A program made the position numbers and the translations under genes. The notes under the pieces are model-generated. The model worked only from the letters and a program-made list of their open reading frames with translations. It made no database searches and was not told the DNA's origin. From positions 17,546 to 36,867 of the forward strand of contig CAZJHM010000002.1 of NCBI GenBank assembly GCA_964545925.1: a stretch of 19,322 bases of DNA, read 5' to 3'. This stretch comes from an uncultured archaeon. Lineage in GTDB: Archaea > Iainarchaeota > Iainarchaeia > Iainarchaeales > CAZJHM01. This document shows positions 6,296 through 19,322 of this stretch, one piece after another. The first letter of the stretch is position 1. Each line of letters starts with the position of its first letter.

Positions 6296-6367
6296 TGCGG
6301 CCACCGGGGCTCGAACCCGAGTCTCAAGCTTGGCAAGCTTGCATTCTAACCACTAAACTATGGCCGC
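6296..6367 (-). tRNA. tRNA-Gly (anticodon GCC), 72 nt, no encoded CCA.
   Basis: The minus-strand sequence GCGGCCATAGTTTAGTGGTTAGAATGCAAGCTTGCCAAGCTTGAGACTCGGGTTCGAGCCCCGGTGGCCGCA folds as a cloverleaf. The 7-bp acceptor stem is GCGGCCA/TGGCCGC. The anticodon stem is CAAGC/GCTTG with loop TTGCCAA, giving anticodon GCC. The T-arm is TCGGG-TTCGAGC-CCCGG. It is a GC-rich island in AT-rich surroundings. Confidence 0.85.
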
Positions 6368-15223: not shown

Positions 15224-15703
15224 TCAGATTTTTTCTCTTTCTAAAATTATTTTATTAGTTAATCCATATTTCTGTTTTTTTATCAATCTTTTTTCTTCTA
15301 ATCTTAAAAGAGTTCTATGAACTTGTATTTTACTCATTCCTGTTTCTTTAACAATTTTTGATTGTGTGCTTTCTTCATCATTATTTGATAAATATTCAAT
15401 TATCTTTTTTTCATCAGGCAATAAAAAATCTCCCATTATTTGCTTTTTCATTTTTTTAACTTCTTTTTTTTCTTTTATTTCTTTTATTGTTAGTCCAGCT
15501 AAGAGACTAACTATACTTCCAACTAAAGCAAGAATGATTGAAATAATATTAACAGACCTAAATGCATCATTCATTTTCCTTTGATTAAAAATTGGAGATT
15601 GGAAAAAATTATTATCGTCTTCATTGTTTGCTCCATTTGGAAAATTTCCGTTTGGAAACCTATTCAAATCAATATTTCTTTCCACTTCAATTGTCTGAAA
15701 CAA
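15224..15703 (-). CDS. Membrane-anchored winged-helix (MarR/TrmB-like) transcriptional regulator. It has an N-terminal N/P-rich extracytoplasmic tail, a single TM helix, and a C-terminal cytoplasmic wHTH.
   Basis: TM helix is VNIISIILALVGSIVSLLAGLTI, followed by a positive-inside KEIKEKKEVKKMKKQ. The wHTH is LLPDEKKIIEYLSNNDEESTQSKIVKETGMSKIQVHRTLLRLEEKRLIKKQKYGLTNKII. The start is uncertain. The longest ORF begins with TTG at 15703 and has 43 stop-free upstream codons, which is unlikely by chance in this AT-rich DNA. The first ATG is at 15574 (116-aa version) and has an AAAGGA element upstream. Confidence 0.55.
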   Translation of the reverse strand: MFQTIEVERNIDLNRFPNGNFPNGANNEDDNNFFQSPIFNQRKMNDAFRSVNIISIILALVGSIVSLLAGLTIKEIKEKKEVKKMKKQIMGDFLLPDEKKIIEYLSNNDEESTQSKIVKETGMSKIQVHRTLLRLEEKRLIKKQKYGLTNKIILEREKI

Positions 15704-16125
15704 TCTCGGAAACCCTTAGCACTTTAACTCTTTTTTTAGGAGCAATAGCAGCAATTTCTCTTTTAGTTGGAGCAGTTGGAGTTGCAAACAGTATGTTTAC
15801 CTCTGTTCTTGAAAAAACAAGAGAAATTGGAATTCTAAAAGCTTTAGGAGCAACAGAAAATGAAGTTCTTCTTCTTTTTATATTTGAATCTGGGCTTTTT
15901 GGTTTTGTAGGAGGTGTCCTTGGAATTTTATTAAGTTATATTCTTTCTTATGCAATGCTTATTTTTGGAATAACTCTTTTTTCATCTTCTTCTCAAGTTT
16001 ATATAAGCCCTGTTCTGATAATAGGTGCAATTATAATGTCCACTTTGATTGGAATTGTTTCAGGTGTTTTTCCAGCTCGCTCAGCCTCTAAACTTAAACC
16101 AATAGAAGTTCTTCGCCAAAACTAA
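15592..16125 (+). pseudogene. N-terminally truncated FtsX/MacB-family ABC transporter permease. Only the C-terminal FtsX domain (TM2-TM4) is present. It is probably a gene remnant.
   Basis: From about 15700 on, LSTLTLFLGAIAAISLLVGAVGVANSMFTSVLEKTREIGILKALGATENEVLLLFIFESGLFGFVGGVLGILLSY matches the conserved FtsX-domain core (compare ...[22 protein letters not shown]....I..QFL.EA...). TM1 and the large extracytoplasmic domain are missing. The first ~37 codons of the ORF are not protein-like and overlap the minus-strand regulator. No partner ATPase gene is adjacent. Confidence 0.5.
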
Positions 16126-16137
16126 TTTTTCTCTAAT

Positions 16138-16869
16138 TTAACACAACCCATTAAAATCAGAAGGAAGTCTTCCTTTCAAAAGAAGATAAAACAAATTATC
16201 AGTCAGCCAAATCTTTGCACAACCTAAATAAGGAACTACAAAAAATACTTTTCCTTGAATCTCATTTTCAGAAACAGGATAAAGTGTTATACAAGCTTTT
16301 TTAGGCAAGCCATTAATAATTACTCCACAATCTTGGTCAATAGTTGGATTCTTCAAACTATCTCCTTTTGTTAAATAATATTTTCCATCTAAAGCCTGAA
16401 TCCCTAATACAGTTCTATGTATTATAGATTTTTTCTGCAACTCAGACCAATAAACAACAATATCTCCACTAGTTTCTAATTCAATTTTCTTTCCCTCTAA
16501 ATTTATTGTCTTTGCTCTTAAAACATTATCAACTATTTCGTATTCTATTTCTCCAATTTCTGAAAAACTTTTTCCTTTAATATATTTCTCTATGGAAACT
16601 TCAAGAGAATTTATTTCTCCTCCTCCCCAAAGAAAGATTATATCTCCTCTATTTAATACAGGTTCCATAGATGCACTCATTACAACACTTATTGGCATAT
16701 CTGTCTGAAAGACTAAGCCCAAAAACAAAAGAAAGAGCCATGCAAAAACAAATGCACTAACCAAATGAACAATAAATTCTCTATTACTATCTCCATTAGG
16801 ATTAACAACAGGCATTAGATATTTATCAACATAAAAAAAAGGGTCTAACCATTTAAGTTTATCCTTCAT
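16138..16869 (-). CDS. Signal peptidase I, archaeal/eukaryotic Sec11 type (S26B).
   Basis: Catalytic Ser box VVMSASMEPVLNRGDIIF (SxSMxP..rGD), His box SIIHRTV, and TKGDSLKNPTIDQD (compare the GDNN..D box). There is an N-terminal TM anchor. The ATGA overlap at 16866-16869 couples it to the upstream gene. Confidence 0.8.
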   Translation of the reverse strand: MKDKLKWLDPFFYVDKYLMPVVNPNGDSNREFIVHLVSAFVFAWLFLLFLGLVFQTDMPISVVMSASMEPVLNRGDIIFLWGGGEINSLEVSIEKYIKGKSFSEIGEIEYEIVDNVLRAKTINLEGKKIELETSGDIVVYWSELQKKSIIHRTVLGIQALDGKYYLTKGDSLKNPTIDQDCGVIINGLPKKACITLYPVSENEIQGKVFFVVPYLGCAKIWLTDNLFYLLLKGRLPSDFNGLC

Positions 16870-17504
16870 TTTTCCACTTTCTTATACTCAAAATAAGAAT
16901 AAGCAAATAAATATCCTGTGGCAAGCAAAATACAAACAATAAAGAAAATAAACAATCCCTTTATCATTCCAAGCAAAACCATCAAAACACAAATCAATCC
17001 AAATACTTTGAATATTTTTCCTCCCAATTTATTTGTTTTATCCCAAATTTTATCACTAGACATTGTCCAAGGAGTTCTTATTCCAATAAACCAATTTCTT
17101 TTTGATTTTTCCATTACAACTCCAGCATAAAATAAAATAACAGCAATTCCTCCAATTGTCATTGCCCCAATATCCAATTCATATCCATAATTAACAGTAA
17201 TTACAATTGCATGCAAATACAAAAGAAACAAAAGCAAAAGAACGACAAATTTTTCATAATATCCTTCAAACTTCTTAATATTTTTAGTTGGGTCAATTTT
17301 AGGAATAACCAAGAAAACAACAACCATTGCTAAACTGAGCAAAGGCATTATTGCCAATCCCCAAAACTTGTCCATATAACCATTTGCTTCTCCTTCTAGT
17401 CCCCAATGTGTAATCATTTCATCAGGCATTTGTTCATAGACTGCAAAAGAAAAAACAAACCCCAATAATATAATAATTAATGCAATTTTTTCCATACTAA
17501 TCAT
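16866..17504 (-). CDS. DUF1648 / SdpI(YfhL)-family polytopic membrane protein.
   Basis: N-terminal MPDEMITHWGLEGEANGY resembles the DUF1648 motif (P.HW...G..D). The near-diagnostic SdpI-family motif NWFIGIRTPWTMSS is present, with about six TM helices. The track start at 17513 is TTG; in-frame ATGs lie at 17504 and 17495. Confidence 0.65.
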   Translation of the reverse strand: MISMEKIALIIILLGFVFSFAVYEQMPDEMITHWGLEGEANGYMDKFWGLAIMPLLSLAMVVVFLVIPKIDPTKNIKKFEGYYEKFVVLLLLFLLYLHAIVITVNYGYELDIGAMTIGGIAVILFYAGVVMEKSKRNWFIGIRTPWTMSSDKIWDKTNKLGGKIFKVFGLICVLMVLLGMIKGLFIFFIVCILLATGYLFAYSYFEYKKVEK

Positions 17505-17585
17505 ACTCACCAAGCAAATAAAAAACTATCCTCTTTTATTTTCTCCATTCTAAAATATAATAACTCCGGCATTCAGCCTCCATCT

Positions 17586-17597
17586 CTTTTTTATACT
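17586..17597 (+). promoter_or_regulatory. Candidate TATA-like element CTTTTTTATACT about 25 bp upstream of the NurA start codon.
   Basis: A/T-rich box in the 112-bp divergent intergenic region between the SdpI-like gene and NurA. Confidence 0.25.
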
Positions 17598-17616
17598 TCT
17601 CTAACCCTTTTCTTTT

Positions 17617-18633
17617 ATGCATCACTCTTTGGACGAAATAATCCAAACATTAAAACAAAAAGAAACCCAACTTCAATCTTCTCTTTCCAATTTTCTCCAC
17701 AATCGTTCCCTTCAAAATTCACAAAACTTCCAAGAAAATCTAGTTATACCTCTCCAAAAGAAAATCCTAAGAGAAAAAATAGCAGGAGTAGATTCAGGAT
17801 TTGTAGATTTCAACTTCTCTCATCTCCAAGTAATCGCAGTCCGCACAACTTCTGCAATCTATTCTTTCAATGAAAAACTCCAAGAATATTCATATTATCC
17901 CCACTACTACTCACAACCTTTACTTTTCTACTCCGAGAAAACAGTTGATTCAAATGACTTAACTTTAAACAAAAATTTAATCCGTCTCCGTGAGGAAATC
18001 CAAACAGCAATTGAAACAATTGAAAAACATAAACCCCAATACCTTTACTTAGATGGAAGTATAGTCCCCCAATATTCTGAAAAACCAGCCCAAAACTCCA
18101 AACTAAAAAAAGAATATGAAGATTTAGTCCTTCTTTTTGAAACTCTTTACCTAACAGCAGAAAAAAATAATTGTCTTCTAATAGGTTGTGTAGAAGATTC
18201 AAGAGGCACAAGATTCACTGAACTTTTAGCAAAAGAAATAAACAAAGACATCTCTCTTTATGATACTCAATTTCTCCATTACTTCCTGCAACCCGGAGAA
18301 AGAACTTCTTTATTTTCATACACTCCTGAAAAACATCCTATTCTAATGGATTTTGATGAAAAATACAGAAACTCAATTTATGTTTTTTATCTAAAAGCTG
18401 GTTTAGACAAACCTCTAAGAATTGAATTCTTAAAAAAAGAGTCAGCAAAAGAAATAGCAGAAATAACATACACTCTTTCTTCTATTCACAGAACATATTC
18501 TTATCCATCTGTTTTAATAGAAGCAGATTTGCGCTCTCGCTTAAAGCCAAAAGAGATAGACTTTATATTTAATTCGATTATCAATAGAGTAGGAAAAGGA
18601 ATCTTAATGAGAAGAGAAAGGAGGCCATTCTAA
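17617..18633 (+). CDS. nurA: NurA-domain 5'-3' nuclease homologue.
   Basis: Motif I is KIAGVDSGF (NurA vDGS-type catalytic Asp). A later motif is YLYLDGSIVPQ. A C-terminal conserved block is YSYPSVLIEADLRSRL, matching the NurA YP.pl..AH..a motif. Length 338 aa is in the NurA range. A strong Shine-Dalgarno element (AAAGGAGG, 18616-18625) and a TAATG overlap couple it to the next gene. Confidence 0.6.
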   Translation: MHHSLDEIIQTLKQKETQLQSSLSNFLHNRSLQNSQNFQENLVIPLQKKILREKIAGVDSGFVDFNFSHLQVIAVRTTSAIYSFNEKLQEYSYYPHYYSQPLLFYSEKTVDSNDLTLNKNLIRLREEIQTAIETIEKHKPQYLYLDGSIVPQYSEKPAQNSKLKKEYEDLVLLFETLYLTAEKNNCLLIGCVEDSRGTRFTELLAKEINKDISLYDTQFLHYFLQPGERTSLFSYTPEKHPILMDFDEKYRNSIYVFYLKAGLDKPLRIEFLKKESAKEIAEITYTLSSIHRTYSYPSVLIEADLRSRLKPKEIDFIFNSIINRVGKGILMRRERRPF

Positions 18634-19274
18634 TGAAAGCACTTTTGTTTGACTTATGGGACACAATCGCTGTCTCTAAACATTTCATAAAAAATTTCAA
18701 AGAAACAATTAACATAGGCCCAGAAATCTCTCTAAAAGATTTTCATATTCGTCTAGCTCACACCTGCTTTACTCATCCTTTTCAAGATTACAATTCACTT
18801 GTTAAGGCAATTTTCTCAGAATTTGGAAAAAAACCAAATCCACAAGACATCTCAAAAGCAGTTTCTAAATTAGAAAATTTTTTCATAAATGCAGAACTTT
18901 TCCCAGACTCAAAATATATTTGGCAATTAAAAGAAAACTACAAGTTTGCTCTTTTAACCAATACAATATCTCCTAATTTTGATGAAATCTTGGAACTTTT
19001 AAACATAGAAAACAAGTTTGATGTTTTAGCTCCCTCTTTTCTCACAAACTCAATTAAACCTCAACCAGCAATCTACCAATATGCTCTTAAAAAATTAAAA
19101 CTAAATCCTCAAGACACAATGATGATTTCAGATTCAATAAAAGATTTAGATGGGGCAATTGTCTTGGATATCCATCCTTTATTAATAGATAGAAAAGACA
19201 AACATCAATATTCTCCAAAAATAAAATCTCTAAAAGAACTTCCAAAATATCTAGAGGGATTTGAATGGAAATAG
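18633..19274 (+). CDS. HAD-superfamily hydrolase, phosphatase-like, with an atypical motif I.
   Basis: Motif I region is LLFDLWDTIAV (D-x-x-D-T rather than the canonical DxDGT). Motif II is LLTNT. Motif IV is MISDSIKDLDGA (SDSxxD). A Lys lies before motif IV (NSIKPQPAIY). It is translationally coupled to NurA. Confidence 0.65.
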   Translation: MKALLFDLWDTIAVSKHFIKNFKETINIGPEISLKDFHIRLAHTCFTHPFQDYNSLVKAIFSEFGKKPNPQDISKAVSKLENFFINAELFPDSKYIWQLKENYKFALLTNTISPNFDEILELLNIENKFDVLAPSFLTNSIKPQPAIYQYALKKLKLNPQDTMMISDSIKDLDGAIVLDIHPLLIDRKDKHQYSPKIKSLKELPKYLEGFEWK

Positions 19275-19322
19275 GAACAGTTGTCTCAACAACTCTCTCA
19301 CCTTCTCCAACAAAAGTAGATT
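19265..19322 (+). CDS. 5' end of a downstream gene (3'-partial) whose ATG overlaps the HAD stop. The N-terminus MEIGTVVSTTLSPSPTKVDF resembles the start of the HerA HAS-barrel; this is speculative.
   Basis: The frame is open to the end of the window. The resemblance is to archaeal HerA N-termini such as MEFIGYIVGETSSTEFYF and MIIGYVIGQATTQEALIL (M.IG.V...T...E..F). Only 19 codons are visible. Confidence 0.2.
   Translation, partial: MEIGTVVSTTLSPSPTKVD

Follow-up and report, generated by a model that had tools for sequence, protein, structure and literature searches.

The archaeal DNA analyzed here is a stretch of 19,322 nucleotides (contig CAZJHM010000002.1 of assembly GCA_964545925.1), referred to below as the window; all positions count from its first letter unless a locus is named. 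Its last part, from 17587 to 19322, is very probably the head of a nurA-HAD-herA operon for DNA end resection in a DPANN archaeon related to the Iainarchaeota (Diapherotrites), HAD standing for a member of the haloacid dehalogenase superfamily. The HerA-NurA system as such is known; here it has a layout specific to DPANN archaea and includes one more gene, which is conserved and belongs to an uncharacterized HAD subfamily. The explanation that best covers the whole, a resection operon together with a nucleotide-directed HAD protein, is one that we hold tentatively and with slightly less than even confidence.

The first gene of the operon (17617 to 18633, + strand) encodes, judging from its Pfam match and predicted fold, a 338-amino-acid (aa) nuclease of the RNase H-like NurA family. 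The original prediction, made by reading the DNA alone, had named a NurA-domain protein of this length with DSG and DGS motifs, and the open reading frame (ORF) and Pfam search confirm it. GVDSGF lies at residues 57 to 62 and LDGSIVPQ at residues 145 to 152, and residues 54 to 306 match PF09376 with 59.3 bits against a cutoff of 21. With the AlphaFold model (pLDDT of 91.6), the top Foldseek matches are all NurA (2ygk at an E value of 5e-13, 9x1m_G, 3tal/3tai/3taz, and 1zup), the best of them being S. solfataricus NurA (2ygk), the NurA chain of the T. kodakarensis HerA-NurA complex, P. furiosus NurA, and TM1739. A NurA sequence profile run against the PDB found no solved NurA and returned just spurious RBM16 matches (E of about 0.02). 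Across 53 NurA homologues, D59, E127, D146, H291, and D304 are invariant and are candidates for the conserved acidic and His metal ligands. As established for the two families, NurA is a 5'-3' nuclease that releases 5'-mononucleotides, and a NurA dimer sits on a HerA hexamer that delivers DNA ends to the nuclease for 5'-3' resection. One of the P. furiosus structures among the Foldseek matches, 3taz, has dAMP bound. An antisense ORF within nurA (17867 to 18211, − strand) had no support and was disregarded.

The second gene (18633 to 19274, + strand) encodes a 213-aa hydrolase. As had been foreseen, the protein that follows NurA is of the HAD family (PF00702 at 65.2 bits and PF13419 at 60.7 bits), and its motifs I to IV, Rossmannoid core, and C1 cap assign it to subfamily IA. 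TIGR01549 is matched above its cutoff (31.3 bits versus 23.3), while all NCBIfam equivalogs are below theirs, the best being TIGR02253 (60 bits versus 169.75). An identity as a haloacid dehalogenase was considered and rejected: TIGR01428 (haloacid dehalogenase type II), the second-best NCBIfam match, scores 59.6 bits against a cutoff of 125.4, and motif IV is of the phosphatase type. Motif I had been called atypical on the strength of its FDLWDT sequence, and so it is. It occupies residues 6 to 11, with the codons for D7-L-W-D-T11 at 18651 to 18665 (+ strand); the nucleophilic Asp is retained, and the Asp two residues further on (Asp+2) is replaced by Trp (Trp9). This replacement is family-wide. 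The family motif is F-D-[LFMC]-W-x-T, with Trp invariant in 22 nurA-linked sequences and in 114/114 database homologues in which the motif can be read. Of the closest cluster representatives at 50% identity, again counting those with a readable motif, 126 of 135 have the Trp and none has Asp. The resulting D-x-W-x-T subfamily, whose members we call W-type HADs, comprises about 480 clusters at 50% identity with an E value of ≤1e-30.

Apart from Asp+2, the Mg/phosphoryl site is retained, with D7, T11, S/T109-N110, K142, and D167/D171 conserved. In terms of motifs, these include the S/T-N of motif II, the K of motif III, and the Mg-binding G-D-S-x-x-x-D of motif IV; D7, W9, T11, N110, S135, K142, and D171 are invariant. 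The predicted structure (pLDDT of 96.3) has a Rossmannoid core and a four-helix C1 cap at residues 18 to 85, between motifs I and II. Of the solved structures, those closest to it are PH0459 with its engineered derivatives, 4ygq (a HAD phosphatase of T. onnurineus), PH1655, L-2-haloacid dehalogenases, and NANP. The 50 best fold matches of the model include no PNKP- or FCP-type enzyme, and the PNK3P family (PF08645) is absent from the Pfam matches at an E value of ≤1. The protein is a C1-capped HAD-IA phosphohydrolase with an intact Mg site, belonging to an uncharacterized subfamily in which Trp has taken the place of Asp+2. We know of no activity for any member of the W-type family. One metagenomic protein, P0355 (389 aa), joins a W-type HAD to part of a Metalloenzyme-superfamily protein (PF01676, phosphopentomutase/iPGM type), namely its C-terminal half. 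As an isolated case that could be a gene-calling artifact, it is not used as evidence here.

What is the third gene? Its ORF starts at 19265 (+ strand), reads MEIGTVVSTTLSPSPTKVD, and leaves the window at 19322, after 19 codons. Searches for exact copies of the NurA and HAD proteins of the window, and with their 100%-identical database entries, led to no longer contig. The closest relative of the locus, L001, has a NurA (P0002) that is 69% identical to that of the window, and the gene order there is nurA (338 aa), HAD (215 aa, 61% identical), and a 511-aa DUF87/HerA, with 1-nt and 10-nt overlaps as in the window. The L001 HerA matches DUF87 with 101.7 bits and has the Walker A and B motifs GAGKS and LLVIEEAH. 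Its N terminus, MEIGTIVSTSLSPTPTRIDF, is identical to that of the window ORF at 15 of the first 19 residues, and the two loci have common upstream synteny (LonB and PCNA). Because gene order, overlaps, N terminus, and upstream synteny all agree, the third ORF is identified as herA by orthology with L001, as had been surmised from a weak resemblance of its first residues to HerA. Beyond herA, L001 carries a 404-aa protein without a Pfam match, an EamA protein on the opposite strand, and a Rad50-like SMC protein. The original prediction also stated that mre11 and rad50 were missing. That holds upstream of nurA, but not downstream in the relatives, where Rad50 usually lies 2 to 5 kb beyond herA, mostly on the opposite strand; the corresponding position here is past the end of the window. 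Mre11 was not recognized in the loci examined. A module for processing DNA ends, made up of the NurA and HAD pair followed by HerA, is therefore supported: the downstream gene is HerA by this orthology, and the HAD protein, which scores below every NCBIfam equivalog cutoff, is linked to NurA or HerA in many genomes, as described below.

The three genes are tightly joined. A T/A-rich, TATA-like box read from the sequence (TTTTTTATA, 17587 to 17595, + strand) about 26 nt before the nurA ATG suggests that a leaderless transcript begins with nurA, and no Shine-Dalgarno (SD)-like element precedes that ATG. In archaea, it is usual for the first gene to be leaderless and for the internal genes to be led by SD elements. 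In the window, SD-like elements are found at none of the genes that head transcription units, and both internal genes of this operon have one. For the HAD gene, it is the 8-nt element AAAGGAGG (18617 to 18624, + strand), which lies within the coding end of nurA, 8 nt 5' of the HAD ATG. The nurA stop and the HAD start overlap as TAATG (18631 to 18635, + strand), with TAA at 18631 to 18633, ATG at 18633 to 18635, and one A in common. The original prediction had drawn attention to both features, and both are present; the 1-nt overlap also occurs in L001, L041, L056, and L074. For herA, the element is GAGGG (19254 to 19258, + strand), within the coding end of the HAD gene and 6 nt 5' of the herA ATG, which overlaps the end of the HAD gene (TAG at 19272 to 19274) by 10 nt, an overlap noted earlier as well. 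The AAAGGAGG element owes its significance to its position rather than to enrichment in the window, where it has 3 matches versus 1.09 expected and where 25/200 shuffles give 3 or more. Both the HAD gene and herA have an SD-like element and a start that overlaps the stop before it, so a single mRNA probably yields all three proteins by coupled translation.

How general is this arrangement? A locus scan with one genome per species gave 80 loci, nearly all labeled Iainarchaeum, Diapherotrites, or “archaeon.” In 71 of these, herA lies downstream of nurA on the same strand; in the remaining 9, no HerA was seen downstream, mostly because the contig ends there. The distance between the two genes is ≤100 nt in 11 loci, 100 to 400 nt in 22, and >400 nt in 38. 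To see what fills this gap, its ORFs were clustered and Pfam was run on representatives. A W-type HAD gene is found in 20 of the 71 resolved loci and in the cut locus L038, so the NurA-HAD adjacency that had been proposed as worth seeking in related genomes is conserved. The loci with the HAD gene make up three clades on the NurA tree, one of which holds the window, L001, and L056, and the pairwise distances of NurA and HAD are correlated (Mantel r of 0.876, reached by 0/2000 permutations). The clade pattern and the correlation indicate long vertical co-inheritance rather than repeated insertion. By these sequence comparisons, the HAD gene is a lineage-specific accessory that is inherited vertically with nurA. 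It has been kept at the nurA-herA position even as the sequences drifted apart, NurA to about 37% identity and the HAD protein to about 28%. Approached from the HAD side, with patterns of the main clade (≥56% identity), 17/17 metagenome loci have, as far as the contig extends, NurA on the upstream side, HerA on the downstream side, or both.

The nurA-herA gap holds a second kind of phosphatase. A gene for a DSP/PTP-type enzyme (HCxxGxxR) directly follows nurA in six loci, and in five of the six it starts 0 to 11 nt past the nurA stop. The genes are at L009 6987 to 7526, L032 1532 to 2038, L060 6979 to 7503, L066 7076 to 7663, L081 1359 to 1946, and L029 3665 to 4273. Their products have a VHCNMGRQRTG motif, match PF22785, PF22784, and PF00782, and have a fold unrelated to that of HAD. 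With the W-type HAD in about 21 loci (L038 included) and the PTP in 6, phosphatases are by far the commonest enzymatic occupants of the gap. In three loci, a second HAD paralogue, with a D-x-G-G-V motif and likewise without Asp+2, is encoded directly 5' of the W-type HAD (L030 8396 to 9004, L052 7075 to 7680, and L074 6972 to 7589).

Several other gene products are encoded in or near the gap. Type II toxin-antitoxin pairs (PIN with AbrB, and MazF/PemK with RHH) lie between nurA and herA in several genomes (L023 7024 to 7651, L076, L058, L040, L068 6969 to 7551, L075, and L063), and further occupants include methyltransferase-like genes and an HGSNAT-type membrane acyltransferase. The gap behaves like a hot spot for insertions. 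A small Zn-ribbon protein (37 to 95 aa, CPxCGS...C..CG) is encoded directly 5' of herA in about 33 of the 71 loci (for example, L007 6988 to 7218, L009 7630 to 7833, and L071 7071 to 7184). It is almost mutually exclusive with the HAD, both being present only in L056, and may be an unrecognized partner of HerA or NurA. Between herA and rad50 lies the gene for the protein of about 400 aa mentioned for L001 (13249 to 14463 there), which has no Pfam or PADLOC match and has weak homologues downstream of herA in most loci. Since Mre11 was not recognized in the loci examined, this protein could be a divergent partner. HerA itself reaches about 1,110 to 1,130 aa in L011 (7988 to 11320), L056 (from 6033), L060 (from 8193), and L027 (from 7230), where an intein-like insert of about 600 aa splits the Walker A motif (..SGAGK|C...HN|SY..), with Cys at its start and His-Asn and then Ser at its end. 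Split tblastn matches suggest the same insert in L039, L054, L058, and L086.

What might a HAD protein do beside a resection nuclease? We propose that NurA-HerA would resect DNA ends and that the HAD protein, produced alongside by coupled translation, would act on a small phosphorylated molecule and not on the DNA ends. This molecule would most likely be a nucleotide, either the (deoxy)nucleoside monophosphates, (d)NMPs, that come from NurA or non-canonical or activated nucleotides, and the HAD protein would then serve as a clean-up or salvage enzyme. Such a nucleotide phosphatase, made together with the resection machinery, is a possibility we take seriously, short of calling it probable. According to PMC11164532, small molecules are mostly the substrates of HADs with a C1 or C2 cap, and macromolecules those of HADs without a cap; the four-helix C1 cap therefore favors a small-molecule substrate and speaks against a DNA 3'-phosphatase like PNKP. 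Further clues come from eight distant W-type HADs on Woesearchaeota-like and other DPANN contigs, none of which adjoins nurA or herA. A HIT gene lies within about 3 kb in five of the eight and directly adjoins the HAD gene in three. Other neighbors are a MazG gene whose start overlaps the HAD stop and a NUDIX gene whose stop overlaps the HAD start, as well as HD, DHH, a small Metallophos_2 phosphoesterase, an MBL hydrolase followed by Hjc, and a Toprim protein. Such a gene set is characteristic of nucleotide hydrolysis and house-cleaning. The 5'-mononucleotides that NurA releases and the dAMP of 3taz point in the same direction.

Several points weigh against this proposal. Only 19 codons of herA are visible in the window, and about 50 of the 71 loci lack the HAD gene altogether. 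The test from the HAD side is biased to close relatives, with distant members of the family outside the sample. The gap is permissive, as it also carries unrelated cargo such as toxin-antitoxin pairs, a GNAT protein, an acyltransferase, and the Zn-ribbon protein. The proposed substrate is derived from the fold class and from the neighborhoods of only eight distant relatives. In addition, loss of Asp+2 normally cripples phosphomonoesterase turnover, which makes a simple (d)NMP nucleotidase less than obvious as chemistry; a substrate with a good leaving group and a long-lived phospho-enzyme are equally possible.

In a different role, the HAD protein would be a dedicated regulator or third subunit of NurA-HerA, either a protein phosphatase that resets phosphorylated NurA, HerA, or Rad50 or a phospho-aspartyl switch that times the complex by slow turnover. 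The coupling is tight at both junctions and is kept in the window and L001, linkage of the HAD to NurA is strict and the two have diverged together, and an enzyme with Trp at Asp+2 should lose its phosphate more slowly. The six loci with an unrelated DSP/PTP phosphatase in the slot after nurA fit as well: two phosphatase folds in one slot suggest non-orthologous replacement, as though phosphatase activity as such were wanted there. Phosphorylation of the machinery has a precedent, NurA and Rad50 having been found phosphorylated in a phosphatase-deletion strain of S. acidocaldarius, according to the passage of PMC6555300 that cites Reimann 2013. However, a C1 cap normally excludes macromolecules, the known HAD protein phosphatases are capless or C2-capped, the distant family members adjoin nucleotide hydrolases rather than repair proteins, and no NurA-HAD or HerA-HAD fusion is among the matches listed (120 NurA and 120 HAD homologues). 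We think a regulatory role distinctly unlikely, and we give much the same low credence to a very different account, in which the HAD gene is a hitchhiker in a permissive gap and encodes an ordinary metabolic phosphatase without a functional tie to resection. The highly variable length and varied content of the gap (toxin-antitoxin pairs, GNAT, methyltransferase-like gene, HGSNAT-type acyltransferase, and second HAD type) are what one would expect of such a passenger, as are the absence of the HAD from most lineages and the presence of related W-type HADs elsewhere in other DPANN genomes. A passenger accords poorly, on the other hand, with a position kept through deep divergence of both proteins, with linkage to NurA or HerA in all 17 loci found from the HAD side, with start/stop overlaps preserved on both sides, and with the predominance of phosphatases among the enzymes of the gap.

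The two functions put forward in the original prediction fare worse. One would make the HAD protein a polynucleotide 3'-phosphatase and have it clean up damaged DNA ends for NurA. DNA 3'-phosphatases of the HAD family do exist (the PNKP/Tpp1 type), and the gene is co-transcribed with an end-processing nuclease, but Trp replaces the second Asp of DxDxT, a large C1 cap stands where an open, capless active site would be expected, and the searches returned neither a PF08645 match nor a PNKP-type structure among the 50 best fold matches. We consider this function very unlikely. The other was a nuclease-based defense cassette, considered here in a form based on HerA, with NurA as the antivirus effector nuclease. 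HerA ATPases partner with nucleases in several bacterial defense systems, the HerA of L001 matches PADLOC HerA models, and the NurA model resembles the nuclease chain of TdpAB (8wfd_G, E of 2e-6). Those PADLOC matches are generic, family-level ones, however, and neither NurA nor the HAD protein has any; the window consists entirely of housekeeping genes; and nurA-herA lies at a syntenic position, linked to Rad50, in essentially all of the related genomes sampled. Such near-universal syntenic presence is the behavior of a core repair operon, whereas a defense island would be patchy, and a role in defense is extremely improbable.

A broader proposal can be made from the two phosphatases taken together. 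NurA-HerA resection in these DPANN lineages would include an unrecognized phosphatase step, carried out by a dedicated partner that was recruited at least twice from unrelated folds, as a D-x-W-x-T HAD in three clades and as a Cys-based PTP/DSP elsewhere, in the slot directly after nurA. We regard this as unlikely, if worth stating. The target of the partner could be the machine itself, the DNA end, or the released nucleotides. If it were the last of these, NurA-HerA would open a salvage line that leads from DNA to nucleosides in DPANN cells auxotrophic for nucleotides.

The rest of the window offers a housekeeping context: FtsY, SRP54, a prepilin peptidase, UbiA, RtcA, GGGP synthase, PTH2, LonB, and PCNA are encoded there. 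A divergent membrane protein gene had been noted just upstream of nurA, and it is indeed there (16866 to 17513, − strand), encoding an SdpI/DUF1648 protein. Its start is overlapped by 4 nt by a 243-aa ORF (16138 to 16869, − strand) with a SASMEP...GD pattern reminiscent of type I signal peptidases and with no Pfam match at an E value of ≤0.001. Another ORF, of 177 aa (15592 to 16125, + strand), contains the C-terminal FtsX permease domain only, and its 5' end overlaps by about 110 nt the 5' end of a divergent winged-helix (DUF7343/MarR-like) gene (15224 to 15703, − strand). The FtsX gene may be truncated, or one of the two starts may be miscalled. The sole RNA-family match in the window is a tRNA gene (6296 to 6367, − strand; Rfam RF00005, 68 bits), and the Rfam scan gave no match in the nurA-HAD-herA region.

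How does the operon compare with known systems? HerA-NurA corresponds, in archaea, to the nucleases that carry out long-range resection in bacteria and eukaryotes. The operon resembles the HerA-NurA systems of Sulfolobus, Pyrococcus, and Thermococcus in that an RNase H-like NurA adjoins a same-strand DUF87/HerA, with Rad50 nearby in relatives. It differs from the classical herA-mre11-rad50-nurA operon in several respects. (i) nurA comes first, followed by the HAD gene and then herA. (ii) mre11 and rad50 are outside the nurA-herA transcription unit, with Rad50 usually on the opposite strand in relatives. (iii) The NurA of the window is too divergent for a sequence profile to find a solved NurA. 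(iv) An extra HAD gene is translationally coupled between nurA and herA. To our knowledge, no phosphatase partner has been described for HerA-NurA; no paper in the library searched names NurA, HerA, and haloacid dehalogenase together, and DPANN papers there touch on HerA/NurA only in passing. A conserved, coupled phosphatase points to a missing step, be it control by phosphorylation, end chemistry, or nucleotide clean-up, and the case is strengthened by the unrelated phosphatase fold in the same slot of sister lineages. The role of the HAD protein may be mundane, and if the gene is an operon passenger, the result is a useful annotation of little wider interest. A sizeable uncharacterized HAD subfamily is defined either way, with a consistent Trp in place of the general acid/base.

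Among the HADs, the best sequence and structure matches are the HAD-IA hydrolases PH0459 of P. horikoshii (1x42), ST2620 of S. tokodaii (2zg6), 4ygq, and TIGR02253, which have the same fold and cap type and share the typical phosphatase motifs II to IV (GDSxxxD). Identity to PH0459, ST2620, and 4ygq is only about 20 to 25%, and the invariant Trp at Asp+2 and the nurA-herA linkage set the window protein apart from them. L-2-haloacid dehalogenases, matched structurally by 2no4, 3umc, and 1qq5, likewise have an aromatic residue and no Asp at Asp+2. Their motif I is D-x-Y-G-T and their motif IV S-S-N-x-x-D, whereas motif IV of the window HAD is the Mg-binding G-D-S-x-x-x-D of phosphatases, and dehalogenation is unlikely given a genome context of DNA and nucleotide enzymes. 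The PNKP/Tpp1 DNA 3'-phosphatases have the superfamily and an association with DNA end processing in common with it, but they are capless and keep both Asp residues of DxDxT, whereas the window HAD is C1-capped and has Trp at Asp+2. Finally, the house-cleaning nucleotidases (YjjG, TIGR02254; the pyrimidine 5'-nucleotidase family TIGR01993; and B. subtilis YutF) have the same C1-capped HAD-IA fold and are matched weakly, at 32 to 34 bits. The window HAD is far below their cutoffs, and those enzymes keep Asp+2; its relatives, however, adjoin HIT, MazG, NUDIX, and HD genes, as house-cleaning enzymes often do.

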